A DNA stretch of 64,000 bases from a virus (Duplodnaviria; Caudoviricetes): positions 7,340 to 71,339 of the IMG/VR virus record IMGVR_UViG_3300025868_000003; one strand, 5' to 3'. The translations under genes were made by a program, and so were the position numbers. Below the pieces are notes generated by a model that did not search any database, was not told the origin of the DNA, and saw nothing but the letters and a program-made list of their open reading frames with translations. Below are positions 1 through 26,840 of this stretch, in pieces. Position 1 is the stretch's first letter. Each line of letters starts with the position of its first letter.

Positions 1-407
1 TGGGTATCACATAGGAATGGTCTAGACCATATAATGAAATGAGAAACCATGTCTGATATTAAATCACATGTTCCTTGATTCCTAGCCTCAATAACTATTT
101 GAGCAGATCCAGATACAAGAACCATATTAATCCTATCGTCACTACCATTGAGGGTGGCCGGTAGAGCCTCGGCTAGGTTATCTGTTATTCCAACCTTATT
201 AATCTGGTAGTCCCCCCTACCTATCAGAACCCTAGGATTTTTCTGGATAGCTATCTTATGAAAATTATTCAGGTGGTCTACCTCTATAGTTCGTACCTTC
301 TCATCAGAATCCCACACAAGGTCATAGTCTTTAGTATAGTTACTAAAGAAATACCTAAGTGGTTCTATGATTAGTTTTGAAACTAATAGAGGAGAAAAGG
401 ATGACAT
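1..407 (-). CDS. Partial CDS running off the window edge; putative tail terminator/completion protein
   Basis: Not in the ORF track. My translation gives MSSFSPLLVSKLIIEPLRYFF...SRPFLCDT, open to base 1. ATG overlaps the upstream TAA. Function inferred from position after the adaptor and stopper-like genes. Confidence 0.45.
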   Translation of the reverse strand, partial: MSSFSPLLVSKLIIEPLRYFFSNYTKDYDLVWDSDEKVRTIEVDHLNNFHKIAIQKNPRVLIGRGDYQINKVGITDNLAEALPATLNGSDDRINMVLVSGSAQIVIEARNQGTCDLISDMVSHFIIWSRPFLCDT

Positions 408-604
408 TAATTAACCCTAAGAGGGAATTTGCGTAGTGTAGCTAGGCCACCAGTAGGGATATGTCTATCCACCTGTCTCTGGATGATTTTACGGGCCTTA
501 CCTTTGAGCATATCTGACTCTAGCCTACTAGTGGTATTTATACCTTTAATTAGGTTACCGGCCCCTACAGTCATTGCAATTTTTTCCAAATACCTATTAC
601 TCAT
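407..604 (-). CDS. Small basic protein with NKYLEKIA-type leader (putative internal head protein)
   Basis: Starts MSNRYLEKIA; GGAG ribosome-binding site upstream. Confidence 0.65.
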   Translation of the reverse strand: MSNRYLEKIAMTVGAGNLIKGINTTSRLESDMLKGKARKIIQRQVDRHIPTGGLATLRKFPLRVN

Positions 605-614
605 AATATCTCCG

Positions 615-1511
615 TTAAATGTATTGTTGTGGGAAGTCTGGTAGATTTTTAGTCATAAGATTATATTCTACACTATCCTTACCAAGTTGTGTTAAAACCA
701 TTATCTGACTGACGGTGTTAGCCATTAGTTCAGTATTAGTCATTCTTTCTATAACGTATGCATTCCAGTCACCTACACGTATTACTATATCATTTAGTCT
801 GATCTCTGGTATAGATATACATCTAGCCCCTATTTGGTTAGGTTCCATTAGCCCATAGTAAGTACGCTGATCATCATTAGGGGTAGGTTCATACTGAAGG
901 TAGAATGGTACAGCATCAAAGTATCCCCCTTCAAAACTAGTTCCGAAACAGGTAGTGCAATGGTCCTTTATTACCTTCTCAGTCTTAGGATCCCAGCAGT
1001 TAGTACAACGTTTACCATAGTCCCTACGTCTAAATAAGTAGGACTTAACCCCTGAGAACTTGGACAATAGAATATACTGTCTACGCTGTATCTCGTTTGA
1101 GCGCAATGCAACCCAATTAGATTGGTATGTATCCCATGTTACTGAAGGGCTGCGCACCCTATGAGAACCTTTATCTAACAACAAAACTTCGACGGAATAA
1201 AAACCTCTGCTAAACTTAGAGTACTCCTTAGAGTACTCCTCTGTCAAAAAGGTGCCATTAATAGGTGTCGGATTTATAAGATCCCAGGGGCCATCCTCCG
1301 TCTGACTAAAGTATACGTTAAATACACACATGCCCCAAGTAGGAGGAACAGCCCACTCTATTGAAGTATGCTTATACCACCTCGGGAATACCCGTACGGA
1401 TACCGAGCTTGAAGTGTATATGTCATTAGATAAAGTTGAAGGGTATGCCCTAATACCTACGGTATTACCCTGTAATAAGAACCCTATATTAAATGAAGTA
1501 TTTAATGACAT
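615..1511 (-). CDS. Putative head-closure/neck protein with Cys4 Zn finger
   Basis: CTNC...CTTC; beta-rich C-terminal part; lies in the head-tail connector cluster. Confidence 0.5.
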   Translation of the reverse strand: MSLNTSFNIGFLLQGNTVGIRAYPSTLSNDIYTSSSVSVRVFPRWYKHTSIEWAVPPTWGMCVFNVYFSQTEDGPWDLINPTPINGTFLTEEYSKEYSKFSRGFYSVEVLLLDKGSHRVRSPSVTWDTYQSNWVALRSNEIQRRQYILLSKFSGVKSYLFRRRDYGKRCTNCWDPKTEKVIKDHCTTCFGTSFEGGYFDAVPFYLQYEPTPNDDQRTYYGLMEPNQIGARCISIPEIRLNDIVIRVGDWNAYVIERMTNTELMANTVSQIMVLTQLGKDSVEYNLMTKNLPDFPQQYI

Positions 1512-1519
1512 GCTCTATT

Positions 1520-2350: not shown

Positions 2351-2388
2351 GTTTATAGTTTAGTACACCCGGTGTGATGGATTAGCTA

Positions 2389-2413: not shown

Positions 2414-2441
2414 CTAAACATAGACAATTAGGAGGTGGTAT

Positions 2442-3341: not shown

Positions 3342-3344
3342 AGA

Positions 3345-4498: not shown

Positions 4499-4852
4499 TT
4501 AGTATACTTGACTATTTTGTGCATTAGATAGTATCTTCCTCATAATTCTCTCATCATTATTCTGTTGGTACTTATGAATACCTAGGTATCCTGCGGTACC
4601 AGTCCCACCCACAGCTAGGGCAGTACGTATACGAGTATTACGGGAAGCAGTAGAGGCGGCATCAGACAGCTCCTTAGCCTTACGCATGGTAGAAGCTGGG
4701 ATGCCGTTGCCGAGATGAGCTGCGTCCTTCAGGGAGTTGTGTATAGTCTTTGCACGACCGGCAGAGTGGCCTATCAGTCTATCTCCAAATCCGAAGATAG
4801 AGTTTATAACTCCGTCAGACTTGGATGCTATCTTTTCTAAGTATTTATTCAT
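4499..4852 (-). CDS. NKYLEKIA-leader protein with Gly-rich hydrophobic helix
   Basis: MNKYLEKIA start at 4852; ALAVGGTGTAGYLGI helix. Confidence 0.75.
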   Translation of the reverse strand: MNKYLEKIASKSDGVINSIFGFGDRLIGHSAGRAKTIHNSLKDAAHLGNGIPASTMRKAKELSDAASTASRNTRIRTALAVGGTGTAGYLGIHKYQQNNDERIMRKILSNAQNSQVY

Positions 4853-5155: not shown

Positions 5156-6049
5156 TTAGAAATTGAGAACTTGCACAGCTGATACGTTTCCGAGTGAACT
5201 TCCGATAGCCTCGTAAGTTTGGAACTGGATCATATCCGCTTCTGTCTTGAGGAAAACTGTAGGTTCCTGCAAACTAAAGAAATTTCCGGTGTACTCTTGA
5301 GGGGCAAACACCAGAGCTTGGTTAGTCGGCAAGATGTCAGTCTTATTAGTCGTGATAATTTTGTATCCAAAAAAATTGTCAAGGCTAGCTTGGCCGCGGA
5401 ACAACTCGGAAGCTGCTGCAGAACCAATTTGAGTAGCTGGTTGAGCCAACAGGTCAGCGTACATGCTTTGAGTCATCAAGATGCAACCAACAGGCAGCTT
5501 CTTCTCCAACAGGAACTTGATACCAGCGTTCAGGTTAGCTACGTTGAAACCACCAGAGATGGTGTGAACGTTGCTGTTAGCAGTAGCCACTGTCAAGCAG
5601 TTGTTATAGAAGTTCTTGTCTTCTTGCTCTTGCAGATCCTTAACAGAGTTCTCTTGAAGGATAGTGCGGATGTCGGTACGGTATGTAGCCAACTCGAACT
5701 TAGACTTCTTGAATTCAGCAGAGCTGATCTTCTGGAAAGTTACTGCATAACGAGAACCTGTAAAGTAGCGAATCTCAGCACGAGACAAGAAAGGCAAGTT
5801 TGCAGCAACGCTGTCTGGCTCTTTCTCTACGATTACTTGTGGCTCTTCGCTCAGTTGACGATCTAGCTCGGAAGCAGTGATCGAAACTGGAGTCAGGATC
5901 TTACGTGTGAAACCATCTTCACGCAGTTTTTGACGCACGAATGCGGACATTGCTGCGCCGGCTTCTTTTTCCATACCTTGGTCAATCTTGTCCAGGAAGG
6001 ACTGGTTGATGAATTGGGTATTGATTGTTTCGGTTGTGTAGTTACTCAT
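5156..6049 (-). CDS. Major capsid protein (HK97/encapsulin-like fold)
   Basis: 297 aa; LREDGFTRKIL, spine-helix-like QENSVKDLQEQEDKNF, FFGYKII; follows protease, scaffold and decoration genes. Confidence 0.8.
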   Translation of the reverse strand: MSNYTTETINTQFINQSFLDKIDQGMEKEAGAAMSAFVRQKLREDGFTRKILTPVSITASELDRQLSEEPQVIVEKEPDSVAANLPFLSRAEIRYFTGSRYAVTFQKISSAEFKKSKFELATYRTDIRTILQENSVKDLQEQEDKNFYNNCLTVATANSNVHTISGGFNVANLNAGIKFLLEKKLPVGCILMTQSMYADLLAQPATQIGSAAASELFRGQASLDNFFGYKIITTNKTDILPTNQALVFAPQEYTGNFFSLQEPTVFLKTEADMIQFQTYEAIGSSLGNVSAVQVLNF

Positions 6050-6639: not shown

Positions 6640-7737
6640 TTATGCATATTGATACTGCACTTGATCCCTATTACCAGATCTTCCAGCCAGTATACCTGCA
6701 CCTAGAGCAGCGCCAGCAGCCGTTAGTGGGTTCCTTTTAATAAGGCCTACTGCTTTACCTAATATACCCTTGACGCCAGTTTTCTCAGCATTTGCAGCTA
6801 TGGTAGCTTTATTAGCTTTGAAATCTTCTAAACGTTTTCCAAGAGACTTGTTTAGAGTAGAGTCGCCAGTCACTTTGATCTTGCCATCAGATATCCTAGT
6901 AGGACTGGTCTTACCTAAACCCATAAAACCAGACTTACCTGGTATAATCTTAGATCCACCAGTTCTGAAAGAGTTAGAGGGTGCTGTAGAAGCATGGGAT
7001 GCCATAATGGAAGCATTACTAGCTCCTCCTGCACGAGAGTCACCGAAGCTCATTCCCTTAGACTCTAGATGCTGTTTATATTTATTAGCAGCAATCTTTT
7101 CTAGGTAAGGGTTACCAAACGAAGCTTGTTTTTCTGAACCATATTTGCCAGCAGCTATATCTTTCTTGAGTTGAGTTTCTAGATTACCACCACGTTTCCA
7201 ATGGTCATAGGCACTTTTATCTGAGCCGACTATTACCCCAACTAGTCCTCCAACCAAGGCTCCAATCAGCCTATTTTCAGGCGTGACTAAAGCTCCAGCA
7301 CCTGCCCCTATAGCAGCTCCACCTAAATTCTGTCCAATATGGGTTTTCCAATCCGTACCATCAAGGGAAGTCTTTGAGACTTTATCTAAGGTGGAGTCAT
7401 AGCCCTTCTCTTTAAGCCTGTTGTTTATACCTACCGCCCCTGTAAAAAATCTATTAGTACCACTACCCATTGCATAGTCTAAGTCTTCTTGGTTAGCCGC
7501 TAGTTTTTCTAAATAAGAGTTACCTAAAACTGAATCAATGTTTATATCTCCATCATCACTATGAGGTCTTACGTTATACGTTAACGCCAATTTTTCTAAG
7601 TACTGGTTATCAAATGAAGCCTGTTTTCCCATATCATCAAACGGGTGGGTAGGATTAGACTTACTTACTGCACCGGTTGCATTTACGAGATTCGTATCGC
7701 TACCTGTAGTAATCCTCTCTATGTATTTATTTCCCAT
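6640..7737 (-). CDS. Putative polyprotein with four NxYLEK(I/L)A-type motifs and Gly-zipper helices
   Basis: NKYIERIT, KQASFDNQYLEKLA, GNSYLEKLA, KQASFGNPYLEKIA. Start moved to 7737 to avoid overlap with the upstream gene. Confidence 0.75.
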   Translation of the reverse strand: MGNKYIERITTGSDTNLVNATGAVSKSNPTHPFDDMGKQASFDNQYLEKLALTYNVRPHSDDGDINIDSVLGNSYLEKLAANQEDLDYAMGSGTNRFFTGAVGINNRLKEKGYDSTLDKVSKTSLDGTDWKTHIGQNLGGAAIGAGAGALVTPENRLIGALVGGLVGVIVGSDKSAYDHWKRGGNLETQLKKDIAAGKYGSEKQASFGNPYLEKIAANKYKQHLESKGMSFGDSRAGGASNASIMASHASTAPSNSFRTGGSKIIPGKSGFMGLGKTSPTRISDGKIKVTGDSTLNKSLGKRLEDFKANKATIAANAEKTGVKGILGKAVGLIKRNPLTAAGAALGAGILAGRSGNRDQVQYQYA

Positions 7738-7750: not shown

Positions 7751-8347
7751 TTAAGCAACGCAGAATTCAAGAATAGGATCCGTCTTAGGTCTTGCAACTC
7801 CAGCAGCTTTACCCATCTCCCATGCAGGCTCTAGAGCCGATGCAACCTTATCTAACACAGTAGTGCTGACACCCTGTAGTTCAATCAGATCTTCCTTGGT
7901 CAACATACCGGACTTGGCAACTTTCTCCATAGACTGAGGTAGGTTGAACTCTTTTTCCGGGGTATTAGCTTCAGCAACTTTAACCATGTTTTTCAGGTCA
8001 TGAATTTCTGACTCCAACTCTTCCACATACTCAGCTACTTTAATCAGTAACTCCGCTTCTGGACTAGCAGTAACTTCAGATGCTTCTTTAACCAGAGATA
8101 CACTAGTCAGGTTCTTAACGTTGATATTAGCAGCCTTAACCATTGCCACTGCCTTGTCGATGTCGATACCTGACATGACTAGGTGTTCTGTAGCCTCTTT
8201 TTCCATTTCCATTTGTAGAACTTCTGCACGAGCCACGTCTTCAGAAAGACCTGCTTGTTTCAAAAGTTCAACCGCAGCCTCAGTCTCCGAAACTTCAGGA
8301 GTGTGCAAGATTTCTGCATATGCACGTAATTCTTGTGTTAGTGACAT
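7751..8347 (-). CDS. Scaffold-like acidic helical protein with repeated K-x-A sites
   Basis: LKQAG, EKEAT, VKEAS, IKVAE, VKVAE, EKVAK, DKVAS. Confidence 0.6.
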   Translation of the reverse strand: MSLTQELRAYAEILHTPEVSETEAAVELLKQAGLSEDVARAEVLQMEMEKEATEHLVMSGIDIDKAVAMVKAANINVKNLTSVSLVKEASEVTASPEAELLIKVAEYVEELESEIHDLKNMVKVAEANTPEKEFNLPQSMEKVAKSGMLTKEDLIELQGVSTTVLDKVASALEPAWEMGKAAGVARPKTDPILEFCVA

Positions 8348-8388: not shown

Positions 8389-8739
8389 TTAGCAGCAGCT
8401 ACTCCCGTACCGACAGTAGTGGCCGAGGACACTTCTATTGATAAGTCTTCGGATATGCATAGCTGCCATACGCCCAGCTTCATCAGCTAGTCCAGCCCTC
8501 TTCTCAATACTCCTATTAACCTTAACCGCAGCTACATCACCTACCAAACCTAATGCCCCAACAGTAACACCAGCCTTGAGCCAGCTTGGTGCCTTCCAGC
8601 TAGAAATAGATTTAGTTTTAGATAGCATGTCACCACCTATGCCTGTACCTAGTCCAGTAGTAGCTATGATAGCTGTTTGTTTGATCTCTTTTTTAGCATC
8701 TTCAGAGAGAGCGGCTATTTTGGTTAGGTATTTGTTCAT
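8389..8739 (-). CDS. NKYLTKIA-leader Gly-zipper protein (C-terminus probably frameshifted)
   Basis: MNKYLTKIA; two Gly-rich hydrophobic helices; a neighbouring frame gives a better C-terminus ending at 8349. Confidence 0.65.
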   Translation of the reverse strand: MNKYLTKIAALSEDAKKEIKQTAIIATTGLGTGIGGDMLSKTKSISSWKAPSWLKAGVTVGALGLVGDVAAVKVNRSIEKRAGLADEAGRMAAMHIRRLINRSVLGHYCRYGSSCC

Positions 8740-8954
8740 GATTTCCTAAGCTCGTATTTGCTAATGGTTTCTCTGATAGCACCGAGGTTTCTACCCTTAA
8801 ATTTGCGTATAGCTGCAAGGGACCCGGCCCCGACTAAGGTACCTAGGGCAAAACTGGGGGCTTTACCTTTAAGATCATCATACATCCCGTTAGCCTTAGA
8901 AGCATTTGCACTTATGGTGCTGGCAATCTTCTCTAAATACTTATTGTGTTCCAC
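8736..8954 (-). CDS. Small NKYLEKIA-leader protein
   Basis: Probable GTG start at 8954 (MEHNKYLEKIA), after a terminator-like hairpin at about 8970-9003; FALGTLVGAGSLAAI helix. Confidence 0.65.
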   Translation of the reverse strand: MEHNKYLEKIASTISANASKANGMYDDLKGKAPSFALGTLVGAGSLAAIRKFKGRNLGAIRETISKYELRKS

Positions 8955-9026: not shown

Positions 9027-10274
9027 TTACAGTCCGTACAGCTCCATGGACTTAGTAGTGACCAGTTCAGCAGCTTTTTCGAAGTCAACACCAGCGTCAA
9101 CCAAGGCTTCAAAAGCAGCCTTCTTTTCACGGGTCAGAGCATATGCACCACCACCGATAGCAGCAGCAGCTGCAGCAGCTTGGGCAATACGATTACCAGC
9201 GATAGATTGCATAGCAAAACGGGGAGACTTACCTAGACTACCTACCGCACCCCTAAGGTTAGAGGCCTCTGACTTAATAGCGGAGGAGAATAGGCCAGAC
9301 TTAGCTTTAGCTTTTTCTGCTAAGGCAGCAATATCTTCTTTAACCTTGCCGGGTAGAGCTTTTAGACCAGCTTTACGGCTACCAGCACCGAGTTGTCCAT
9401 CACCAAAGTTACGACCACCAGTGGCAATACTCTTCACGGTAGCTCCAGTACCAGCTTCTTTGATCAGATCTACAGCAGTTTCAAAGTCAAAACCTTGACC
9501 AACCAGTTCGCTAACAGCGGCTTGCTTGATTTGTGCGTCTTCTTCGATACAAAGAGCCTCTTCAGCTTCCTTAACCAGATCCACAGCGGAATCAAAGTCC
9601 AGACCATTTTCAACTAAAGTGATAACAGCAGCCATCTTCTCTTGAGACTCATCAGCGTGACCTTGAGCAGTAGTGCCTTGATCAACAGCAGCACCTTCAC
9701 CAGCAGAAGCGCCAGCAGATTGTGTTTGGTCATAAGCAGTTGCGCCTTCACCCATTGCGTCAGCAACGATTGCATCAAAGATTTGGTTCACGGAACCACC
9801 ATTACCTGCACCATCGGTACCAGGAACAGCTTGGATCTTAGCGTCGTCTTGTGCTTTCATTTCAGCGTTATCAACGATATTCTTTTGTGGGACAGTACCT
9901 GGGGTAACGCCGTTTTCAGTGATGACATCACCAGCAGAAGCCAGTTTAGTCAGGATTGCATCGGCCAAAGCCTTGCCAGCTACAGAAGCTTGTTTGCTCA
10001 TTTCAGTATTTTCCTTATTGTTAGTTGCTACTTTTTCCAGAATTTCTTTAGCTAAGTCAGCTCCTTGATCAGATGCAGACTTCTCTTGACCTTCTTTCTT
10101 TTTGGCTTTAGCTTTTTCAGCTTCAGCTTCACTGGTTTCACCAGAATCCTTTTTCTCCGACTCTTTAGCGTCTTCTTTCTTGTCGGCTGCAGAACCTTCG
10201 GTTTCAGCGTCAGAAGCTTGCTTCTCAATTGTAGCCAGAAGGTCTTCTAAAGTGAAGTTATCGTTTTTACTCAT
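9027..10274 (-). CDS. Putative prohead scaffolding/core protein
   Basis: Acidic and Ala-rich; about 10 K-x-A sites (EKQAS, EKSAS, EKVAT, SKQAS, TKLAS, EKMAA, VKEAE, IKQAA, IKEAG, EKKAA); directly downstream of the protease. Confidence 0.7.
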   Translation of the reverse strand: MSKNDNFTLEDLLATIEKQASDAETEGSAADKKEDAKESEKKDSGETSEAEAEKAKAKKKEGQEKSASDQGADLAKEILEKVATNNKENTEMSKQASVAGKALADAILTKLASAGDVITENGVTPGTVPQKNIVDNAEMKAQDDAKIQAVPGTDGAGNGGSVNQIFDAIVADAMGEGATAYDQTQSAGASAGEGAAVDQGTTAQGHADESQEKMAAVITLVENGLDFDSAVDLVKEAEEALCIEEDAQIKQAAVSELVGQGFDFETAVDLIKEAGTGATVKSIATGGRNFGDGQLGAGSRKAGLKALPGKVKEDIAALAEKAKAKSGLFSSAIKSEASNLRGAVGSLGKSPRFAMQSIAGNRIAQAAAAAAAIGGGAYALTREKKAAFEALVDAGVDFEKAAELVTTKSMELYGL

Positions 10275-13729: not shown

Positions 13730-13748
13730 TACTTTTCCTTTGGTTGAA

Positions 13749-14857: not shown

Positions 14858-15325
14858 CTACTTCTTAGGTGGCAAGTGATTTAGTATGGCATCTAAAGAT
14901 TTTTCTGCACTACCGCCAGGGACATGCGCATACGTTCTATCTTTATGTCCAGCACTCCTATGTATGGAGTTAATGGCGTCCCTGTCCACCAGTTCTGGGT
15001 GGCTATTATATCTTTTAAGTTTGGAAAGTCCTCCCGATACCGCACCTACTGCGGCACCCGCTAAACCTAACTTTAACCCCATCTTAGTTTTGCTAGGCAT
15101 TACTCCGCCACCTATAACTGCCCCCAGTCCTGCTCCTGCAGCCCCGAGTATTCCACCGCTGGTTAAAGCTCCTCTACGTATTCCAGAGTTTTTCTGGTCT
15201 CTATGCAATCTATCGTAGGATGATTTATCACTAATCCTAATGACCCCTGACTCATTATGGTACTGTATACCAGGCCTTACCTCACTCCATTTAGCGATCT
15301 TCTCTAAATATTTATTTTCACTCAT
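14858..15325 (-). CDS. NKYLEKIA-leader protein with double Gly zipper
   Basis: MSENKYLEKIA; GGILGAAGAGLGAVIGGG and GLAGAAVGAVSGG. Confidence 0.75.
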   Translation of the reverse strand: MSENKYLEKIAKWSEVRPGIQYHNESGVIRISDKSSYDRLHRDQKNSGIRRGALTSGGILGAAGAGLGAVIGGGVMPSKTKMGLKLGLAGAAVGAVSGGLSKLKRYNSHPELVDRDAINSIHRSAGHKDRTYAHVPGGSAEKSLDAILNHLPPKK

Positions 15326-16044
15326 GATAAACTTTCTATACTTTCAAACGTCATTTTCTCAGGTAGAGTTATATCTACCGGTTCATTCTTTTGTGCAAAC
15401 TCTTCTATCACCTGATCTAATTTATCTAACCCTTGAAAGTCCGGAATGACCTCTCTGAGTGCCATTTCTAGGTCGGCACGGGCCGCCTGAGAATCTAAAA
15501 TCCAAATTTTCAAAAGTCGTGCCAGGTCCATACTGAGTTTCACCCACTTTGTCGACTCACGGCTCGAGTCGCTTACGTTACCGCTAAACAGGGCCTCTTT
15601 AGACTTGAAGATACAAGTACTAAACAGATCTTTAAGACCCTCAACAGGAGAGATGCTAACCTTGTTACCTAGACGCCAAGATACAAATTCCAAGCCCTGA
15701 CTTAGGGCCCAAGTCTTCATACCCTTTTCAGCCTGGTCGGGAATATCTAACAGCTCTAACTTAGATAGCTTATCTAAATCTGTAACGTTGTAGAAAATGT
15801 CACGATACATGGTAACTAAGTCTAGTGGTAGCTCCAGTAATTCAGAAATCTGAAGCATATCTTTACTGGCTAGAAGGGAGGATTCTAGATAGTTTTTCTT
15901 AGTGGGAGACTTATGTAATTCCAAGCTTTGTTTATACAGCTTGAAGTCTATTGAGTCTGCAGAAGCCAGTATGGCGTCGACTATGGGGTCAACGCCAACT
16001 GTTTTATTATTGATTAATGAGGCTCTAAGTTTTGGATTCTCCAT
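15322..16044 (-). CDS. Hypothetical protein
   Basis: 240-aa ORF, tightly packed in the structural operon. Confidence 0.7.
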   Translation of the reverse strand: MENPKLRASLINNKTVGVDPIVDAILASADSIDFKLYKQSLELHKSPTKKNYLESSLLASKDMLQISELLELPLDLVTMYRDIFYNVTDLDKLSKLELLDIPDQAEKGMKTWALSQGLEFVSWRLGNKVSISPVEGLKDLFSTCIFKSKEALFSGNVSDSSRESTKWVKLSMDLARLLKIWILDSQAARADLEMALREVIPDFQGLDKLDQVIEEFAQKNEPVDITLPEKMTFESIESLS

Positions 16045-16062: not shown

Positions 16063-17979
16063 TTATTTACTACCGGCTTTAACTTTAGAGCCGGCCTCCT
16101 CTGGCTTCATTGCTATCATCTCCTCCAGTTTCATATAGTTATCACCTAACATACGATAGACTGCTTTTAGATTAGCTAAGAACGCAAATACATTATCTGA
16201 GTCATTACCATCAGCGAGCTTCTCAATATTCACCCTGGATAATAGCAAAATACGACCTAGTCTGTCAATGCACTCTTCTATGTCTGGGAGATACTCACTA
16301 ATCATCTCAAACATATCTGGGGTTTGTAATAGCTCAGAGATAATCGTAGCTTCAACAGATTGAGCATCATTAGTCTTTAGAGCACTCTGTACATTAGGTA
16401 CAAAAGACCCATTCAAACCTGGTTTAGGCTGAGAAGGTAGCTGAGCACCATACTGAGGAATCTCGGCTGGAGCAGCAGCCTCAGCAGCAGACTTAGATAG
16501 ATATATTTTTACGAATCTATTTTCCCTAGCTTGCTTAATGAAGTGCGCGGCTTGAACAGGATCTATACCCTCTTCAACTACCAACCGCTTCATTACATTA
16601 GCTTCTTTACCCATAGGTTTACGGCCTATGAAGAATTCGATGCCATCAAATCCTACATCTACTTGATGACCTAGTAAGCTACCGGCTTCGCTGATTTCAC
16701 GCTTCTTAAATGCGGAGTTAACGCTCTTCTCCATGTTCCCCGTTACATCCTTACCTAGCATAAGGACTAGCGATGCATACGGAACATACAATTCATTGCG
16801 ATGTCTATCTGAGGTATCCAGCATGCAAGAACCAGCGAAGTTTCTATATGCATGGATACGAACTGTGGAGAAATTTCCAGACAGAGCTGTTGCAGATATT
16901 TCTACTCCTAAGTTATTAATGCTTACGTCACTAGCCTTAAATACCCCTATCAGCTCTGAGTTAGTGGTGATAAGAGCAAACGTAGCATCCCTAGTTAGAT
17001 CCTTAGGCAACACAGGTGGAGTAAAATCGAATAGGGAAGTTAATACAGCCTTGCGGTTTTTTATATCACCAACACTGATGAAATTATTACCAATAGCATA
17101 ATCTCCATTAGTGAAGATAGCCACGGCTGAACCGGGAGTATTCCCCGAGCAGTCATACCTTTTACGACGGAAATCGACTATTTGTTTAGGAATAAATGCT
17201 TCACGAGAATTCCCGTTAGCAAGCATTAGTTCATAGTCTCTATCACCATCCAAATTGGACACTTGAGTAAATGATCCTGACTTATTATAATCTAGATGTG
17301 ATACTGCAACCTTAGAAGTCGTAGGAGCGCCTTGTACAACATAGCCTACATCCAGAACTGTCTGGATTTCAGAGTCTGTCATCTTTGTACTTGGTACATC
17401 TAGGATGGAAACAGGTGCTTGGTTAGTTACAGCAGCTAACCCACCTGGGGCAGCTTTAAGATGATCAAAGATATCCTTTAGGTTAAACAGGCTGTGTAGA
17501 TTCTCATACATCGACTGTTCAGCAGCAATCTTCTCAATAGTAAAACTCTTAAGAGAGTTAGGCATAGATGACAAGAAGTCACCGAGTCTACTAGAGGATG
17601 CATATACGAACTTACCAGTCCTAGGAGGATTGATGAGCTGAGACAGATCTGGGTTCTTAGTTACAGTATCCGGAATCTTGGTAGCCTTACCTGGTACATT
17701 CTGAGAAATACTAGAGATAAGGTTAAGAGTCTTGCGCGTCAATGGGAAGAACTTCCCTTTAGACGAGATAAAAATAGAGTCTATTGGATAGACGTTGTCA
17801 CCCTTGGATACAGTAGGTACAAACATATACTCTGTTCCGGCTTTAAGAATAAAGATACCTACTTGAACCCCATTATCGTCTGACAGTTCTTCAGATACAT
17901 CTTTAAATGTAACTATGTAATTTCCCAGTTCTGGCAAAGTCTGTAAAAGTTTAGCCAGAGCGATATCGTAGAACTCCAT
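16063..17979 (-). CDS. Large hypothetical virion protein
   Basis: 638 aa; EKIAA and SKSAA sites; GAGG ribosome-binding site; in the head module. Confidence 0.65.
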   Translation of the reverse strand: MEFYDIALAKLLQTLPELGNYIVTFKDVSEELSDDNGVQVGIFILKAGTEYMFVPTVSKGDNVYPIDSIFISSKGKFFPLTRKTLNLISSISQNVPGKATKIPDTVTKNPDLSQLINPPRTGKFVYASSSRLGDFLSSMPNSLKSFTIEKIAAEQSMYENLHSLFNLKDIFDHLKAAPGGLAAVTNQAPVSILDVPSTKMTDSEIQTVLDVGYVVQGAPTTSKVAVSHLDYNKSGSFTQVSNLDGDRDYELMLANGNSREAFIPKQIVDFRRKRYDCSGNTPGSAVAIFTNGDYAIGNNFISVGDIKNRKAVLTSLFDFTPPVLPKDLTRDATFALITTNSELIGVFKASDVSINNLGVEISATALSGNFSTVRIHAYRNFAGSCMLDTSDRHRNELYVPYASLVLMLGKDVTGNMEKSVNSAFKKREISEAGSLLGHQVDVGFDGIEFFIGRKPMGKEANVMKRLVVEEGIDPVQAAHFIKQARENRFVKIYLSKSAAEAAAPAEIPQYGAQLPSQPKPGLNGSFVPNVQSALKTNDAQSVEATIISELLQTPDMFEMISEYLPDIEECIDRLGRILLLSRVNIEKLADGNDSDNVFAFLANLKAVYRMLGDNYMKLEEMIAMKPEEAGSKVKAGSK

Positions 17980-18889: not shown

Positions 18890-20718
18890 TAGTATCGCCC
18901 ATGATATCCATCACCGAACTCATTACCTATAAGGAATGGGGTTATAGGGTCTGTACTATGTACATCAGATTCTTGCCCCAGAGCTGCCGCATCCTTTAGG
19001 CTATTTTCTAATTTAGAGAAAGATAACCTAGAGATCCAGTTCTTATCTAACAACTTAGCAGTTTGTAGACCGGGGACCACCGGAGTTATCCTCAGTCTAC
19101 TACCTGTAGTTTTAACCGACTTAACACCTTGGCGATGTAGTTCATCTATGTGATTATCATCCAAGGTAGTACCAGGTGTTAATTCAAATTGGCTACGTGA
19201 TAGCATCTTACCCTTAGCTTGATGTAGGGGGGTGTCCACTTCATCCTGTTGTAGATGCTTAGATATGGAGTTAATAGTAACCTTATCTCCTGGGGTAAAT
19301 CCGGTTTCTCCAGGGCTGTCTACCTGTACGTACTTAACTAGATTACGGGAAATTAACTCGAAGTGTCTAGGATCTAAGCCGCCACCATATATATTCCTTA
19401 GCTCTTCTGCCAAGTATTTACGTCCAGCTCCTATGCCTCTCAAGGAAACTAGTTTCCTAGGGTTAATAACCCCCGTAGATATTGCATATCCCCTCTTTAC
19501 CGCATTCCCTTTCTTTATGGTCAACTGCTGTATTCTAGGAACAAAGTGTTTAACTCCATCTATGAATACGTGATGGTCCTTTAGAGGCGTCAGTATTATA
19601 TCATTAACCTTACCATTGACCTCTGAGATAGTAGCTTCATCCTTGAAGTTCTCTTTAGGGTTGTTAAGAATGTTAGAGGCTTGATCATATATATTACCAC
19701 GACGTTCTCCAACAGTAGCCTTATGTTTAGTTGATAACATAGCTTGTGTAAGAACCTCTGATACTGATTGTGCGGCTATAATACCTACGTTTTCACCTAT
19801 CTCAGGGTTTTTCCCACTACCCATTAGTCCATAACATTTCTTACATACACCCTCGTTAGCCTCACATGTCAATGCGCTGCGGACCACTACCGTAGGGGAG
19901 CGGGACATAGTAAGGTGCTTATAGTACTCCTCGTCTATTACGTGGTTAGTACCGGCTTCGTACCTTCCTAATACAGACTTTTTGTCAGATACCTTTTGGG
20001 TGATACCATTCTTAGTTCCACAGTCATCTACTGTAATAGTCTCATGGAAGACTGTAGGACTTAGGCGTTTAAATAGAGCTCCAGGTAGAGCAGTCGATAG
20101 CTGGGATAGAACCGTAGAACCGCGTCCCATGTAACTCATGGCTAGGTGTTCGGCTGGGGACATACCACTAGCAAAGGAGCTCTTAATTACTAGGGGTATT
20201 AACTCCCCCTTAACGTTTAATGACATAAGTGGAGTAGAGGTACCCGAAGCTAACTGAGCGGGATTACCACGAGCCCCAGTTCTAGCCATCTTAGCAGCGG
20301 TAGACCCCCTACCAGAAAGGTAGTCTAGGTTCTGTTTTTCTATTCGCTTGTTATAGTCGGAAGTTAAACTGCCTAAGCCATCGTTCTTATGGGACTTACT
20401 TCCTGGCCCATGGATTATTTTATTAGCCTTAGTTTCGTATTCCTTAAGGATAGCTGAGCGCTCATCACTTTCATTTATGTAGTCTGATAGGGGGGTAGAG
20501 GCACCTATTTCAGTAGCCTTATTAAAGAACATCTGTCCTAATGTATTTATATGTTCATGGGACTTACTACCACCATGCCTTATAAGCATATTTACCATCC
20601 TAGACATACCCCCCTTATCTAAAGGGGTGTGTATGTCAAATTCCTGTTTAGCCTTTTCGGTAGGCATGGAGTGCTTAATTATAAGGGAGCCAACGGTGGT
20701 TAGTTTAGTATCAGTCAT
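18889..20718 (-). CDS. rpoC: RNA polymerase beta' subunit, C-terminal part
   Basis: TTVG start, GARGN..QL, bridge helix (STALPGALFKRL), DDCGT, VRSALTCEANEGVCKKCYG Zn site, trigger loop AAQSVSEVLTQAMLSTKH, RHFELISR. Confidence 0.93.
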   Translation of the reverse strand: MTDTKLTTVGSLIIKHSMPTEKAKQEFDIHTPLDKGGMSRMVNMLIRHGGSKSHEHINTLGQMFFNKATEIGASTPLSDYINESDERSAILKEYETKANKIIHGPGSKSHKNDGLGSLTSDYNKRIEKQNLDYLSGRGSTAAKMARTGARGNPAQLASGTSTPLMSLNVKGELIPLVIKSSFASGMSPAEHLAMSYMGRGSTVLSQLSTALPGALFKRLSPTVFHETITVDDCGTKNGITQKVSDKKSVLGRYEAGTNHVIDEEYYKHLTMSRSPTVVVRSALTCEANEGVCKKCYGLMGSGKNPEIGENVGIIAAQSVSEVLTQAMLSTKHKATVGERRGNIYDQASNILNNPKENFKDEATISEVNGKVNDIILTPLKDHHVFIDGVKHFVPRIQQLTIKKGNAVKRGYAISTGVINPRKLVSLRGIGAGRKYLAEELRNIYGGGLDPRHFELISRNLVKYVQVDSPGETGFTPGDKVTINSISKHLQQDEVDTPLHQAKGKMLSRSQFELTPGTTLDDNHIDELHRQGVKSVKTTGSRLRITPVVPGLQTAKLLDKNWISRLSFSKLENSLKDAAALGQESDVHSTDPITPFLIGNEFGDGYHGRY

Positions 20719-20801
20719 AGCAGTATTTTAGCTTACCACTATAAATTCCACAAATGCTATTTTTAGGGTATAAGACGGTATACAAGATTTTAATGGAGAA
20801 C

Positions 20802-21035
20802 ATGATGAATGACCAGGTAAGTAATTTAGAACCACATCAACTAAGGGTGGTGCATGAGTTGGAAGAGGTTAAGACCAAGTGGATAGCATTAAATAGTTTT
20901 TTACATACTGAAACTTTCAAATCCCTAGACGTAATAGAGAAATGTTTACTAGTAAGACAGTCAGACATAATGGAAGAATACTGTAGTATCTTAGGACGTA
21001 GGATACAATTATTTACCAGTAAATTGACGGGATAA
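20802..21035 (+). CDS. Small helical phage protein
   Basis: GGAGA ribosome-binding site before ATG 20802; HQLRVVHELEE...Y..IL.RRI pattern. Confidence 0.65.
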   Translation: MMNDQVSNLEPHQLRVVHELEEVKTKWIALNSFLHTETFKSLDVIEKCLLVRQSDIMEEYCSILGRRIQLFTSKLTG

Positions 21036-21038
21036 AGT

Positions 21039-21773
21039 ATGGTTAACTTAGATAAAACGTGGATATGCTCGGATCTCCATTTAAATCACGGGAATATAAT
21101 CAAGTATTGTAATAGACCTTTCAAGTCTGTTAATGATATGAATGAAGAGATAATAAACAGGCATAACTCGGTAGTAGATCCCACTGATACAGTATTCATA
21201 CTCGGAGATTTGGGATGGCCAGATCCCTCTGAGTACGTTAAGAAACTGAATGGAAATAAGATCCTTATCAGAGGGAATCATGATAGTGAAAAGGTAGTAT
21301 CCTCCTTACTGAGGAATAATACTATCATAGGGCCGGTACATGACTATTTTGAGTTGACCCTGAAGGAATACGGGATACTACCGATAGTAATGTGTCACTA
21401 CCCTATAGAGTCCTGGAATCGTAAATACCATGGCGCTATACACTTACATGGTCATACCCACGGTACCTTGGATAACTCAGGATTGATGAGGTTTGACATG
21501 GGTATAGACTGTAACGATTATTATCCATTCAAATTAAAAGATGTACTACGCATGGCTGAAGAGAGGTTAACTGAGCTAGGTGGGAAAGAGGGTATACGAG
21601 GCAACCTGGGAGATAAGGAGACTTATGGGCTGAAAGAGCAGGTACGTCCCATAGCCAGAGACTCTAAAATGCAGGAGTTATATAAATTAGCAGAAGAGGA
21701 TGTAGACAAGTTTCTAGAGGAACATCGTATTTACAAAGAGTTCTACGAATCAAGACAAGTCAATATACCATGA
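21039..21773 (+). CDS. Phage metallophosphoesterase
   Basis: SDLHLNH, ILGD, GNHD, CHYP, HLHGHTH. Confidence 0.9.
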   Translation: MVNLDKTWICSDLHLNHGNIIKYCNRPFKSVNDMNEEIINRHNSVVDPTDTVFILGDLGWPDPSEYVKKLNGNKILIRGNHDSEKVVSSLLRNNTIIGPVHDYFELTLKEYGILPIVMCHYPIESWNRKYHGAIHLHGHTHGTLDNSGLMRFDMGIDCNDYYPFKLKDVLRMAEERLTELGGKEGIRGNLGDKETYGLKEQVRPIARDSKMQELYKLAEEDVDKFLEEHRIYKEFYESRQVNIP

Positions 21774-22127
21774 GCAATCGGTTTTGTGTGGATTCTCGGC
21801 TTCGCATAGTTTATAGTTATTTCCCCATACCGGACTTAATGGAGTCAGGTATATCTTCTGTTCAAAACCGAGTTCTAGAAGCAGTTTTTTCAGGTACGGA
21901 ACTAGCCTACTGAAGTTCCCCCTGCCCCTGCTTAAACTTTTACTGTATAGGTGGGCGTTACCTCTAAACTCCCCTATAGAGTTTAGTATCACACAACCTC
22001 CAGATATAGAGATATCTATTGGTACATCATTAATCCATCCTGTGCCAGGCAGTAATTCTTCATTTTTAAATTGAATACTGCTACCAGAATACTTGGCTAG
22101 ACTTTTTAGGAATTCGGATTCAGTCAT
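21750..22127 (-). CDS. Hypothetical protein, possible GNAT-like fold
   Basis: RGRGNFSRL resembles an acetyl-CoA-binding loop; weak evidence. Confidence 0.4.
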   Translation of the reverse strand: MTESEFLKSLAKYSGSSIQFKNEELLPGTGWINDVPIDISISGGCVILNSIGEFRGNAHLYSKSLSRGRGNFSRLVPYLKKLLLELGFEQKIYLTPLSPVWGNNYKLCEAENPHKTDCSWYIDLS

Positions 22128-22163
22128 TACTATAATTTAGACGAAATTAAGGAGTTATATAGT

Positions 22164-23546
22164 ATGAGCATATTAGACGTAGTGAAAGTACGTGAAGAGA
22201 AAATTTATCCTCCCTTAACTATTGTACCTAGTCTACGGGAAGTATTACATCCCATTAAAGGTAATGTACATGAAGCCACTAGTTACGAGGAGTTTAGCAT
22301 CTGGATGTCAGGAATTAACCGTATAATTAGTAGACAATACTACGAGTTAAAAGACATATGCACCAGGATATCTAGACTAGTATCAGGCTCTAAGATGTTA
22401 CAGGGAGATTTCCAGGTAATGGAAGTAGATAGTCAATATATGGACTTATTTAATTTAAAAATGGTGATGTTTGGATTAAGGGTATCTATCGCCATCAATC
22501 CGGCGGAGGCTACGGAACATATTAGTAATGCTATATCTACCTCTACTAAAGAACAAATTAATACTGTATTTAATCCAACGGGGTTTATCACCAGTAAAAA
22601 AGTGCAGCCCCAGATCAATAATACCCTGTTATACGAAGGTGATTTCTACATACCATTAGTAGATAGTTCTACAAATACTAATGTAGGGTGTGTTCGTATT
22701 AAGGCATACTCAGGCAGATGTATTGTCCCCTATACATCACCGGGAACTATGCTTAGTCCGGAGTCTATATACGGGGGGGGTGCTATAATAGAGGCCCTGA
22801 CGTCCTCATGTATCCCTGTTAAATACGATAAACCCTCTGGGCTACCGTACATTACAGTAGAGGGGTATACAGATATCTCTGATGGAGTAGAGACTATTAA
22901 GAAAACCTTCTTGTCACCGTGGGGACTTAATGATCTAAACGGGGTTCTAGTAACGTCCATACCTAGAACAGTAGCACCTAGTAGTGTCTTAAGGTACCCC
23001 GGGACTACTAATACTATTATAATGATAGTTAAATCATTAAAGTGTTTTACTAAAGAGGAGGGGCTGGATGCGCTATCCTCACTATGCCCTATAAGGAATC
23101 CTTTAGCCCCAGTAATTATGCAAGTTATCAGGGATGGAACTGAAGCAGACTTTAATACTTCAAATTATGCTGCTATAAATAGGTCGGCCATGAGGATGTT
23201 GGCACCGGTTATAGCTAGCATTAAATTAGTTTTCCCTGAGCCAAATTCAACCGAGTTTAAACCAGAGTACTTACCAAAGGGGATTACAAAGAAAGATACT
23301 AAGGATTTCATAGCCAAGTTTCTAACTACTAAGTGCCACGGTATTCCAATAAGAATACTTATAGAGTCGGGGTCCGATGATAAGGTTATAGAAGCCTCTG
23401 AGAAATACTTTGAAGAATTCTTGCTTAATGGAGAAAAGCCTAAGACACCTAAGACGCCTAAGAGAAACATTTCATCAGTTAAGCTTAATCCAGTAAACTT
23501 TTCGGTGGATGGTACTTCAGGACTTCAGGCAACTCGTCAAGTGTAA
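22164..23546 (+). CDS. Hypothetical protein, probably truncated by an 8-bp duplication (restored end 23671)
   Basis: AAGGAG ribosome-binding site; ACTTCAGG duplicated at 23514-23529. Confidence 0.7.
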   Translation: MSILDVVKVREEKIYPPLTIVPSLREVLHPIKGNVHEATSYEEFSIWMSGINRIISRQYYELKDICTRISRLVSGSKMLQGDFQVMEVDSQYMDLFNLKMVMFGLRVSIAINPAEATEHISNAISTSTKEQINTVFNPTGFITSKKVQPQINNTLLYEGDFYIPLVDSSTNTNVGCVRIKAYSGRCIVPYTSPGTMLSPESIYGGGAIIEALTSSCIPVKYDKPSGLPYITVEGYTDISDGVETIKKTFLSPWGLNDLNGVLVTSIPRTVAPSSVLRYPGTTNTIIMIVKSLKCFTKEEGLDALSSLCPIRNPLAPVIMQVIRDGTEADFNTSNYAAINRSAMRMLAPVIASIKLVFPEPNSTEFKPEYLPKGITKKDTKDFIAKFLTTKCHGIPIRILIESGSDDKVIEASEKYFEEFLLNGEKPKTPKTPKRNISSVKLNPVNFSVDGTSGLQATRQV

Positions 23547-23735: not shown

Positions 23736-23766
23736 CCTAATCTAGGCTAATGTGGTAAAATAGGAT

Positions 23767-24468
23767 ATGTCCAATTCTACTCAATCTATTCTTTTCACTA
23801 GGCAGCGCCATGACGCTGAACGGGCTGGATTACACTATGACTATAGAATTGTAGTGGGGGATAAAGCTTACTCGTGGGCCACTAAGAGAGAACTTCCAGA
23901 ACCTGGTAAGGCCATAATTCTATGGGAACAACCGGTCCACACCGCAGACTATGCCCTCAGTCAAAGGGTTGAGATTCCTAGTGGCCAATATGGGGCGGGA
24001 ACTACTACCCTTGATTGGATTAAAAAGGGAACTGCAAAGTTCAATGAAGACAAGATTACGGTAGAAACTAAAGGTAGTAAGTTTCTAATCAAGAAAATGC
24101 CCGAACATTATGGGAAGGGTGCGTGGTTATTTAAGAGGGTGGATAGTGTGAGTGAGAATAAGTATTTGGAGAAGATTTCATCTGATCTATCCATCGCATC
24201 TAAGTCTCATGCTGAGGAGACTAAGGCCATACACGATTACACCGAGCTCCTTAAGGATGCTAAATCTCCAGAGCTAAAAAAGGCTATTGAACACGCCCGT
24301 AAGGAGGAGGGGGATCATGCCTCTGATTTCAAGAAGGTTATGAGCAAAGAGGCCGAACTACGAGAAGAGTTAAGGCTGAAGCCTAAACTAAGGGGTAATA
24401 GGTATCTTAAGAAGGCTAAGGCTATTAAGCCTCATAATAATAAAAGTATTATTACTCATAATAAATGA
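23767..24468 (+). CDS. LigD-type 3'-phosphoesterase fused through an NKYLEKIS motif to a half-ferritin-like domain
   Basis: QRHDAERAGLHYDYRI, YSWA, HTADY, IPSGQYGAG (LigD PE motifs); ENKYLEKIS; EETKAIHDY...EEGDH. Confidence 0.85.
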   Translation: MSNSTQSILFTRQRHDAERAGLHYDYRIVVGDKAYSWATKRELPEPGKAIILWEQPVHTADYALSQRVEIPSGQYGAGTTTLDWIKKGTAKFNEDKITVETKGSKFLIKKMPEHYGKGAWLFKRVDSVSENKYLEKISSDLSIASKSHAEETKAIHDYTELLKDAKSPELKKAIEHARKEEGDHASDFKKVMSKEAELREELRLKPKLRGNRYLKKAKAIKPHNNKSIITHNK

Positions 24469-24504
24469 GCATGAGTTTTCCTGATCCAGTGTTAAAATAT
24501 AGTT

Positions 24505-25386
24505 ATGAACTATATTAAAAAACAATTAGACTCTTTATCAGAAGCAGATTTTAAGGACTCATATCTGGTTACGCTGGTGGATGGCAGACAACATACATAC
24601 CTAGGTCAGGATGAGATCCAAATAGTATACCCTGGGTGGAAGGACGGATGGAGGACACTTAAGGTAGCTGAAGTATCCAAATACTTGGAAATGCCTTACA
24701 TGAAATCCAGGTTATACATGCCTCTCCCCAGCCCTAAGGAGTTACCAGAGCAGAAATACTTTATAGACCCTTATCTGTTAGGGGTATTAATAGGGGATGG
24801 CGGTTTAGGATATGGGAGAATGACTATTACTTCTGCTGATGAAGATTTAATACAAAACTGTAATTCCCGCATTCACTTCGGGTTCGAGGTGGTAAAACTT
24901 AGTAGTAAGTACGGGTACGGGTTACGTAGAAATAAAGTAACAGGGTCTAAGGGTAAGCATAATGCTTATACGGATGAAATCAGACGACTAGGTTTAAATG
25001 TTAATTCTGAACTTAAGTTTATACCTGAGAACTACTTAGTTGGATCAATAGAACAGCGTTCATGGTTAATGAAAGGACTTATGGATACCGATGGTACCAT
25101 AGACCTCCAAGGAACTAGCTCTTATTGCTCGACTAGCTATAGGCTAGCATGTGATGTAGTTGAGTTAGCCAGATCCCTCGGACATATAGCATTTATAAGC
25201 GAAAGACACCCATCCTTTACATACCTGGGGGTAAAGAAAAAAGGTAAGACGGCATATCAGGTTAATCTACGGGTTAGAAATCCAAGAAGCCTGTTTAGTA
25301 TATCAAGAAAACTAAGTAGATCCCCGGATAAAAATCAATACTCCGATACTTTAAAATTGCGTATAGAAGACATACAGAGATTATGA
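24505..25386 (+). mobile_element. Free-standing intein-type LAGLIDADG homing endonuclease
   Basis: PYLLGVLIGDG, LMKGLMDTDG, STSYRLACDVVELARSLG; no intein splice-junction residues. Confidence 0.85.
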
Positions 25387-26840
25387 ATAAGTACCTAGTC
25401 AAAATAGCGGGGTCTAAGTCTACACAAACTACTCTAAAACCTCATCAGGAGCGCTCTTTGAGAAAACTGGAGTTAGAAGGAGGTGTCCTACTAGACCACG
25501 GCACAGGTACGGGTAAAACTAAGACCTTTCTTGCAGCCATAGAGCGTGCGCAGAAGAGAGATAAGAAGAACTATGCATTGGCAATAGTTCCAGCCTCTCT
25601 AGTATCCAATATAAATAAAGAGATAAAAAAGCATGGTATGGATATAGATACTAAGCGCCTGCTGGTAACTACCTATAATAAAGCTGTTAATGATGTCGAC
25701 GAATTATCTAATAAGCACTTTTCCATAGCCGTGGCTGATGAGGCCCAGGCTTTGAGAAACCCAACTACCAAACGCCATAAAGCCCTTAGTAAACTTATAA
25801 CAGGGGCTGATCAGCGCCTGCTAGCTACTGCTACCCCTAGGTACAATCATGCTGGTGATCAGGGGCCATTAGTTAATATCGTCGCAGGTAAAAAGGTACT
25901 ACCAGAAGGTAAAGACGCTTTTGAAAAAGAGTTCGTAGTTCGTAAAACAGAACACCCTAATATTCTTAGACGTGTACTCATGGGTGCTACCCCTAAAGAG
26001 ACGGTTGAAATAAAGAATAGCAAGTATCTGGATAAAGTCCTGAATAAATACACCGATCACTACGATGTTAAAAATGATCCTGAACTTCAAAAGCACTTCC
26101 CCACCACTTCGGAGAAGGTGATTGAAGTAGAGATGTCTCCTGAACAGCGTACACTTTACAAGTTTATGGAAGGTAAGCTCCCCTGGGCTATGAAAATGAA
26201 GGTACGTATGGGTATGCCACTAGACAAGCGTGAGAGCCGTGAGTTAAATGCGTTCTCTTCTGGTGTACGTCAGGTATCTAACTCTACTAAACCGCTCCTA
26301 ACCAACTCGTCTCATGTTACTCCTAAAACTATACAGGCAGTAGACAACCTGCATAAAGCCATAAAATCGGATAAGAATTTTAGAGGAGTGGTATACTCTA
26401 ATTTCTTAGAATCTGGGTTACGAGATTACTCTGAAGAACTGACTAAACGTAATATTTCACATGCTATATTCCATGGAGGATTAAGTGCGAAGCAGAAGGA
26501 TGAAATTAAGGATGCATATAATGGCGGCAAGATCAAGGCGATGCTCGTTTCTAGCTCTGGAGCGGAAGGCTTAGACTTAAAAGGTACTAAACTCATGCAG
26601 ATACTTGAGCCTCATTTTAATCAGTCAAAAATAGATCAGGTAGTAGGTAGGGCGGCTAGATATGAATCTCATACTCATCTACCAAAAAGTGAGCGCCATG
26701 TAAACATAGAGCATTACCACTCCATACTACCTAAGGGGTTTATGGGAAATAGGCCGCATAGTATTGATCAATATCTCTATCATAACTCTCAGACTAAAGA
26801 CGACCTTAATGAGAAGATAAAAGCATTGCTCCATGACTAG
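25383..26840 (+). CDS. SNF2-like SF2 helicase/translocase with NKYLVKIA leader
   Basis: HGTGTGKT, DEAQ, ATATP, SGAEGLDL, QVVGRAAR; starts MNKYLVKIA. Confidence 0.88.
   Translation: MNKYLVKIAGSKSTQTTLKPHQERSLRKLELEGGVLLDHGTGTGKTKTFLAAIERAQKRDKKNYALAIVPASLVSNINKEIKKHGMDIDTKRLLVTTYNKAVNDVDELSNKHFSIAVADEAQALRNPTTKRHKALSKLITGADQRLLATATPRYNHAGDQGPLVNIVAGKKVLPEGKDAFEKEFVVRKTEHPNILRRVLMGATPKETVEIKNSKYLDKVLNKYTDHYDVKNDPELQKHFPTTSEKVIEVEMSPEQRTLYKFMEGKLPWAMKMKVRMGMPLDKRESRELNAFSSGVRQVSNSTKPLLTNSSHVTPKTIQAVDNLHKAIKSDKNFRGVVYSNFLESGLRDYSEELTKRNISHAIFHGGLSAKQKDEIKDAYNGGKIKAMLVSSSGAEGLDLKGTKLMQILEPHFNQSKIDQVVGRAARYESHTHLPKSERHVNIEHYHSILPKGFMGNRPHSIDQYLYHNSQTKDDLNEKIKALLHD

Follow-up and report, generated by a model that had tools for sequence, protein, structure and literature searches.

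The prohead protease gp21 of bacteriophage T4 cleaves at (L/I)-x-E, after the Glu, and encapsulins load varied cargo, including ferritin-like proteins, into an HK97-fold shell by means of short terminal cargo-loading peptides. The T4 internal proteins IPI–III carry the capsid-targeting sequence (CTS) MKTYQEFIAE (PMC8442874), in which targeting depends on residues 4 and 7 and processing on residues 8 and 10 (PMC9026906). In the phiKZ-like phages (phiKZ gp175, SPN3US gp245), propeptides are mostly 80–160 residues long and are cut after Glu, at (S/A/G)-x-E or A-x-E (PMC5694885). Herpesvirus assemblins cut at V/L-x-A|S sites, for example YLQA-T and VQA-S in pseudorabies virus (PrV; PMC4498786), and the capsid and scaffold proteins of Staphylococcus phage 80alpha have a Prp/L27-type leader, a mimic of L27 that the host cysteine protease Prp cuts between F and A (PMC5744158). 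Here we describe an eight-residue peptide, consensus N-x-Y-L-E-K-I-A (hereafter the tag), that recurs in a 64,000-nucleotide stretch of a Caudoviricetes genome (IMG/VR record IMGVR_UViG_3300025868_000003, positions 7,340–71,339; hereafter the window), and we compare it with these systems. We consider it somewhat probable that the tag is a two-part N-terminal propeptide of the T4 CTS kind, which would load cargo into the phage head and then be clipped after its K-x-A; the loading function, the cleavage, and the exact bond are what we infer from sequence.

The six-frame translation of the window was searched with the regular expression N-x-Y-[LI]-x-[KR]-[IL]-[ATS], giving 13 in-frame copies between positions 575 and 25409 (Table 1). 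All copies listed in a preliminary description of this DNA were present, in frame, and where it had placed them. The head module contains eleven of them, all in minus-strand orientation, and the other two are plus-strand copies within a divergent group of DNA-repair-type genes. Nine of the 13 begin 1–3 codons past a start codon, while the other four are internal, three in open reading frame (ORF) 6640–7737 and one in ORF 23767–24468. The first of these ORFs (minus strand) is polyprotein-like, with four tags and Gly-zipper segments; K-Q-A-S-F precedes two of its internal tags, and its homologue in the closest relative, locus L001, retains EKQASFD-NPYLEKIA. The copy at 24157 is preceded by GTG-S-E, residues that match MSE-NKYLEKIA at 15325. 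A degenerate DNA pattern for N-x-Y-L-x-K-I-A matched nine times in the window, compared to 0.00 times in 100 dinucleotide shuffles. One further match to the regular expression in the window (NDYIDKVT, 50727–50750) is weak and internal and is read as a chance match, and the same search found no copy in the remaining 7.3 kb of the 71,339-bp record. The string NKYLEKIA was not found in the literature searched.

An exact IMG/VR scan with the back-translated NKYLEKIA pattern returned 94 stretches. Across 98 IMG/VR loci, the regular expression identified 237 tag copies, 210 of them (from 80 loci) 1–3 codons away from a start at ATG, GTG or TTG. Fourteen loci have internal copies only; these are mostly small contigs with one recurring internal context, and are probably unrelated matches. 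Three distant loci (L002–L004), with a protease 38% identical to that of the window, have no tag. Whole-record scans of five related records (G001–G005) gave 5–12 copies each, and a reversed-pattern control gave none in the same records. The protease gene discussed below is inside the tag cluster in all five, and in the complete 185-kb record all eight copies fall within 40 kb. The motif is missing from all early and replication genes, in line with the distribution that the preliminary description had looked for. A few proteins of L024, L060, and L027/L042/L064 have a C-terminal tag or near-copy (e.g., ...K-Q-A-S-NRYLEKIA-stop), and the phosphoesterase protein of L027/L042/L064 ends in ...NKYLEKLS-H-Y-A-stop.

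All wobble positions differ between copies of the tag, which are written with AAT or AAC, AAA or AAG, TAT or TAC, four Leu codons (TTA, TTG, CTA, CTT), three Ile codons, and four Ala codons (GCA, GCT, GCC, GCG). Because every wobble position varies, selection acts on the peptide rather than on the DNA, and a DNA-level element (promoter or recombination site) was ruled out on the same ground. The variation also argues against an expression-level signal spread by recombination, whether it acts through A/T-rich DNA at the 5' end of the coding region or through N-terminal residues that govern how translation starts or how stable the protein is. The motif does directly adjoin the start codon and is encoded by A/T-rich codons, but internal and C-terminal copies exist and early and replication genes lack it entirely; we regard such a signal as very improbable.

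The proteins behind the tag differ from one another. BLAST groups the 169 distinct cargos into 78 clusters, of which 55 have a single member, and since the post-tag sequences separate in this way we call the cargo unrelated, as had already been said of the copies in the window. Variability of this order is as expected for proteins at the phage–host interface. Between the window and L001 (protease 77–78% identical), DNA homology (~81%) covers the upstream gene and breaks off precisely where the tag ends, at its last codon (15293). It returns just past the cargo gene (14851), and in the interval a 441-bp cargo has been replaced by an unrelated one of 1048 bp behind the same tag. The tag as a portable module under peptide-level selection is supported by these comparisons.

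The second half of the tag, L-E-K-I-A, fits a wider motif, hydrophobic-x-K-x-A. In this genome [LIVFM]-E-K-x-A occurs 25 times vs. 1.8 expected, and K-x-A-[SAG] 54 times vs. 25 expected, bearing out the earlier remark that head proteins are dense in K-x-A sites. Nine head-module proteins contain 46 [LIVMF]-x-K-x-A sites (7.4 expected), in contrast to none in three RNA polymerase pieces (2.75 expected), and other gene classes are near expectation. A sequence-level test found the closing K-x-A consensus of the tag in the scaffold and capsid proteins as well. The cultured members of this clade are Salmonella phage Arash (181 kb) and Vibrio phages D69, D181, and D148 (~187 kb). No N-x-Y tag was found in the regions of Arash and D69 that were examined; hydrophobic-[ED]-K-x-A-[SA] is nonetheless abundant in the head genes of both, in corresponding positions (e.g., protease residues ~26–34 and 384–388), and their N-terminal leaders with K-x-A alone are short and varied.

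The first half of the tag is tied to position. Among [LIVM]-E-K-[LIVM]-A sites in the IMG/VR loci, those with an N-x-Y prefix are N-terminal in 122 cases and elsewhere in 17, whereas those without it are N-terminal in 6 and elsewhere in 61 (odds ratio 73, p 2e-29). The N and Y are as conserved as the K and A, and in the family of ORF 12114–12374 the N, Y, L, E, K, I, and A of the tag are invariant in an alignment with a mean column identity of 37%. This is consistent with a function of N-x-Y separate from that of the K-x-A half, in parallel with the division between targeting and processing residues in the T4 CTS. It also bears on the explanation that the tag is a cleavable leader alone, one that has no encapsidation role and, for instance, keeps enzymes and membrane-active Gly-zipper proteins inactive until the head matures, with N-x-Y as an extended recognition element for substrates that have no upstream residues. 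Such a leader would account well for K-x-A being the part common to all other head proteins, for the K-x-A-only leaders of D69 and Arash, and for an Arash helicase that reaches the virion untagged (see below). However, it sits poorly with N and Y being so conserved and nearly confined to N-terminal copies, or with the internal polyprotein tags that also retain N-x-Y; moreover, a prohead protease works inside the shell, and its substrates must therefore arrive there first. On balance we think a leader alone unlikely.

The candidate prohead protease is encoded at 10347–11858, adjoining the scaffold and capsid genes, and belongs to a family of at least 464 members. Its residues 70–212 match phrog_18299 (head maturation protease), and sequence and profile searches against the PDB returned nothing real. 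A structure model places the catalytic domain at residues ~35–222 (predicted local distance difference test score, pLDDT, mostly 73–92 by block). The best structural match of this domain is T4 gp21 (5jbl, Z 11.5, root-mean-square deviation 3.0, 132 residues), and herpesvirus proteases are next (Z 7–10.8 overall), from varicella-zoster virus (10.8), PrV (10.4), and herpes simplex virus 2 (8.4). The protein as modeled thus has the T4 gp21/herpesvirus assemblin fold. In an alignment of 34 homologues (46–78% identity), K-x-A is invariant at residues 32–34 (G-L-x-K-Q-A|A-D) and 219–221 (V-L-Q-K-V-A|S) and conserved near residues 248–250, 385–387, and 480–482. All five sites are in low-pLDDT linkers around the folded domain of the model, flanking it as putative auto-processing sites. 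H56, H98, S149, and H175 are invariant, and the spacing of H98, S149, and H175 resembles the His-Ser-His of assemblins. Residues 152–175 include the invariant or near-invariant C152, C159, C162, C173, and H175, which looks like a zinc-binding insert beside the putative catalytic Ser149. A complex prediction for residues 35–222 with the tagged 86-residue family was used neither for nor against an interaction, as the control scored equally high.

On the propeptide reading that we prefer, the docking of cargo to a component of the assembling prohead would most likely fall to N-x-Y, together with the E and I of the same face, and the cargo would be enclosed as a result. L-E-K-I-A would be an instance of a recognition site hydrophobic-x-K-x-A, at which the 10347–11858 protease would clip the tag inside the head and free the cargo; the same enzyme would cut its sites in the scaffold-like proteins, in the capsid N-terminus, and in its own linkers. 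The cut most likely falls just after the Ala, because the known cleavage rules of enzymes with this fold have a P3-x-P1 geometry, which K-x-A fits with Ala as P1. The cargo would include small Gly-zipper proteins and an SNF2 helicase, along with a DNA ligase and a ferritin-like mini-protein in relatives. If this is correct, the internal and ejected proteins of an entire uncultured phage clade can be read off from sequence by means of the tag, which could also serve as a short natural encapsidation tag for HK97-type capsids. K-x-A would also be a third cleavage rule beside the Glu-specific rules of T4 and phiKZ; its resemblance to that of the herpesvirus assemblins bears on how specificity evolves within one protease fold.

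Several observations weigh against the propeptide reading. The residue after the Ala of the tag varies (S 21%, E 16%, A 14%, G 11%). Some E-K-x-A-A sites of the scaffold-like protein 9027–10274 open a repeated helical unit and may be structural rather than cleavage sites. The sequence upstream of the putative site in the capsid protein (5156–6049) is itself highly conserved, and for that reason this site may stay uncut. The catalytic role of H98, S149, and H175 is putative, assigned from invariance and spacing. Tagged cargos are not depleted in K-x-A (26 vs. 18 expected, and 63 vs. 50 expected), and the idea that packaged cargo avoids such sites was rejected on these counts. Lastly, the Arash orthologue of the helicase, gp217, has no tag or leader, yet is abundant in virions, so the tag is not the sole possible route into the head. 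The preliminary description had proposed a portable head-loading tag cut after K-x-A by the 10347–11858 protease; in silico, this proposal is supported in part, through the portability, the K-x-A marking of head proteins, and the gp21/assemblin fold.

All six genomes compared (the window and the five related records) have the tag on their SNF2 helicase. Purified Arash virions yielded 38 peptides and 1148 spectra for gp217, beside 1210 spectra for the RNA polymerase beta' subunit gp216, 1149 for gp218, and 1333 for the capsid protein (PMC10585845). The Arash gp217 gene is located in the head module. A cultured relative thus has in its virions, in abundance, the orthologue of a helicase that consistently carries the tag wherever the lineage is tag-bearing. 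Its gene is directly 3' of the beta' gene in Arash (L099:7705–10943), and the two proteins have near-equal virion spectral counts. It is speculation that the helicase is a RapA-like partner of the virion RNA polymerase, whose tag could load the whole enzyme. An unrelated cyanophage, Pseudanabaena phage PA-SR01 (L101, MT234670), also encodes an SNF2-type helicase in its head module (19578–23108). There, a recurring motif (M-K-H-F-A-N-F, M-R-K-S-A-N-F, M-E-H-F-A-N-F) starts Gly-rich neighbors and precedes the helicase core; this short motif may be an analogous tag system.

Other enzymes are tagged as well. In relatives, the ATP-dependent ligase (L013:1381–2745) consists of a tag, an N-domain of ~150 residues, the sequence I-Q-K-Q-A|S, and the ligase core, while the ligase of the window (27811–28707) has no tag and is encoded by a gene of its own, which starts immediately past the equivalent of the I-Q-K-Q-A|S site. 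ORF 23767–24468 of the window fuses a LigD 3'-phosphoesterase domain, via an internal tag, to an EncFtn/rubrerythrin-like mini-domain (Pfam matches for these domains are just below or at threshold). Relatives have the ferritin-like mini-protein as a stand-alone tagged protein of 62–72 residues (L018:2637–2855, L036:5655–5870, L069:9969–10187), its gene sitting between the tagged helicase and ligase genes.

In relatives, the genes for the helicase, the ligase, and the ferritin-like protein make up a single tagged operon. This could mean co-assembly rather than packaging, as would be the case if the tag were an uncleaved amphipathic docking helix (Y, L, I, and A on one face) that binds a hub (scaffold, portal, RNA polymerase, or chaperone) and is kept on the mature protein. 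The C-terminal and inter-domain copies (L024, L060, L027, and window 24157) would survive any cut, which speaks for such a helix. On the other hand, it would have to be mere chance that the second half of the tag coincides exactly with the K-x-A motif found throughout the head proteins, and most tagged genes are situated between the protease, scaffold, and capsid genes. We judge an uncleaved helix to be decidedly unlikely.

Read as a cleaved propeptide, the tag is most like the T4 CTS. Both are N-terminal peptides of ~10 residues common to otherwise unrelated head-internal proteins; in both, a tag-specific N-terminal part leads into a P3-x-P1 protease site, the tag stays the same while the cargo genes behind it are exchanged, and the protease fold is shared (Z 11.5 to 5jbl). 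When MKTYQEFIAE is set against M-N-K-Y-L-E-K-I-A, the residues M1, Y4, E6, I8, and A9 are identical in register, although nine residues cannot establish homology; the shared Y4-E6-I8-A9 register pointed out in the preliminary description is therefore real. The site differs, being hydrophobic-x-K-x-A rather than (L/I)-x-E, with a variable position 10 that is E in 16% of tags, and the predicted cleavage consensus, as also proposed earlier, is unlike the Glu rule. Further differences are a small capsid protein (297 residues, HK97-type) that is not gp23-like, cargo that includes an SNF2 helicase and a DNA ligase, and internal and polyprotein copies. Because the CTS idea is already established, this is not a new kind of system. 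What is new relative to the literature found is the consensus, a predicted K-x-A rule for an enzyme of the gp21 fold, the breadth of use (at least 464 protease homologues and dozens of contigs with the tag), the enzyme cargo, and the internal and polyprotein copies.

A bolder version of the same reading seems to us possible but doubtful. In it, one eight-residue code would load up to a dozen cargos per virion into an HK97-type head across a large uncultured clade (genomes to ~190 kb), including an RNA-polymerase-associated SNF2 helicase, a DNA ligase, a 3'-phosphoesterase, and a ferritin-like mini-protein, all freed by an assemblin-like Ala-specific cut. The helicase tag might then bring in the whole virion RNA polymerase, and the Y4-E6-I8-A9 register would be the trace of an ancient CTS/gp21-fold pairing with a drifted cleavage rule.

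The remaining systems share fewer features with the tag. Phages of the phiKZ type likewise carry a virion RNA polymerase in the particle along with numerous ejection proteins, and have a prohead protease with auto-processing sites that removes N-terminal propeptides thought to target proteins into the prohead (PMC5694885); their propeptides, however, are long and Glu-cut rather than one shared short tag. The assemblins share the protease fold (Z 7–10.8) and, with the cut as predicted here, a P1 Ala with a small P1' and self-release from flanking domains (PMC4498786). In contrast, their P3 is hydrophobic where it would be Lys here, and herpesviruses have no N-terminal cargo tag, the present system being that of a bacterial virus. 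The 80alpha leader is also a conserved N-terminal peptide (13–14 residues) on non-homologous phage proteins that is clipped at a fixed bond (PMC5744158). It is cut by the host Prp, whereas the findings here point to a gp21-fold protease of the phage itself and to a K-x-A motif spread across the head proteins, and the tag has neither an F-A bond nor an L27-like sequence. Encapsulin peptides differ from the tag in being usually C-terminal, uncleaved, and of other sequences.

Table 1. Window positions of the 13 tag copies and of genes in and around the head module. The fourth column gives the start codon position for N-terminal copies.
Feature	Position	Strand	Start	Comment
Tag NRYLEKIA	575–598	-	604	N-terminus (M-S-N...) of 65-residue ORF 407–604; tagged orthologue in L047
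Tag NKYLEKIA	4826–4849	-	4852	N-terminus of ORF 4499–4852 (117 residues); L001 orthologue 91% identical and tagged
Tag NPYLEKIA	7090–7113	-		Internal, ORF 6640–7737
Tag NSYLEKLA	7498–7521	-		Internal, ORF 6640–7737
Tag NQYLEKLA	7585–7608	-		Internal, ORF 6640–7737
Tag NKYIERIT	7708–7731	-	7737	N-terminal copy of ORF 6640–7737
Tag NKYLTKIA	8713–8736	-	8739	N-terminus of ORF 8389–8739 (116 residues)
Tag NKYLEKIA	8922–8945	-	8954 (GTG)	ORF 8736–8954; N-terminal if the start is GTG 8954 (M-E-H-N...)
Tag NKYLEKIA	12348–12371	-	12374	N-terminus of ORF 12114–12374 (86 residues)
Tag NIYLDKIA	12530–12553	-	12559	N-terminus of ORF 12371–12559 (62 residues)
Tag NKYLEKIA	15293–15316	-	15325	N-terminus (M-S-E-N...) of ORF 14858–15325 (155 residues); cargo-swap site vs. 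L001
Tag NKYLEKIS	24157–24180	+		Internal, ORF 23767–24468, between LigD 3'-phosphoesterase and EncFtn/rubrerythrin-like mini-domain
Tag NKYLVKIA	25386–25409	+	25383	N-terminus of SNF2-type helicase 25383–26840
Major capsid protein	5156–6049	-		phrog_2522; 55% identical to Arash gp226; G-M-E-K-E-A|G at residues 25–31
Arash gp225 match	7751–8347
Scaffold-like repeat protein	9027–10274	-		Arash gp223 homologue; six E-K-x-A sites
Prohead protease candidate	10347–11858	-		Matches Arash gp222 (41% identity)
Arash gp221 match	13187–13822
Scaffold-like helical head protein	13749–14819	-		Arash gp220 homologue; sites E-K-V-A, K-Q-A, E-K-A-A, E-K-V-A
Arash gp219 match	15322–16044
Head-module structural protein	16063–17979	-		Arash gp218 homologue; sites I-E-K-I-A, I-E-K-L-A
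RNA polymerase beta' piece	18889–20718			Matches Arash gp216
Portal	39077–40873

The gene order of the head region is that of Arash gp216–gp226 (Table 1). Megablast of the head module against cultured phages gave no match, and Pfam had no match to the protease, to the scaffold-like proteins, or to any of the small tagged proteins. The 71,339-bp record has no terminal repeats and is probably a fragment of a larger phage genome, since related records of 77–85 kb are rated 42–67% complete.

Little weight was given to the structure model of 13749–14819, which is weak (mean pLDDT 54.9) and has three of its four sites in low-confidence linkers. The repeat protein 9027–10274 has three repeats of a ~35-residue unit (E-K-x-A-A...L-V..G.D-F..A-V.L-[IV]-K-E-A), each opening with a K-x-A site, and this unit recurs in Arash gp223 and gp225 and in D69. 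Genes of homing-endonuclease type are found in or near the head and helicase modules at 12552–13190 (endonuclease VII/HNH-like), 1520–2350 (homing endonuclease), and 24505–25386 (LAGLIDADG).

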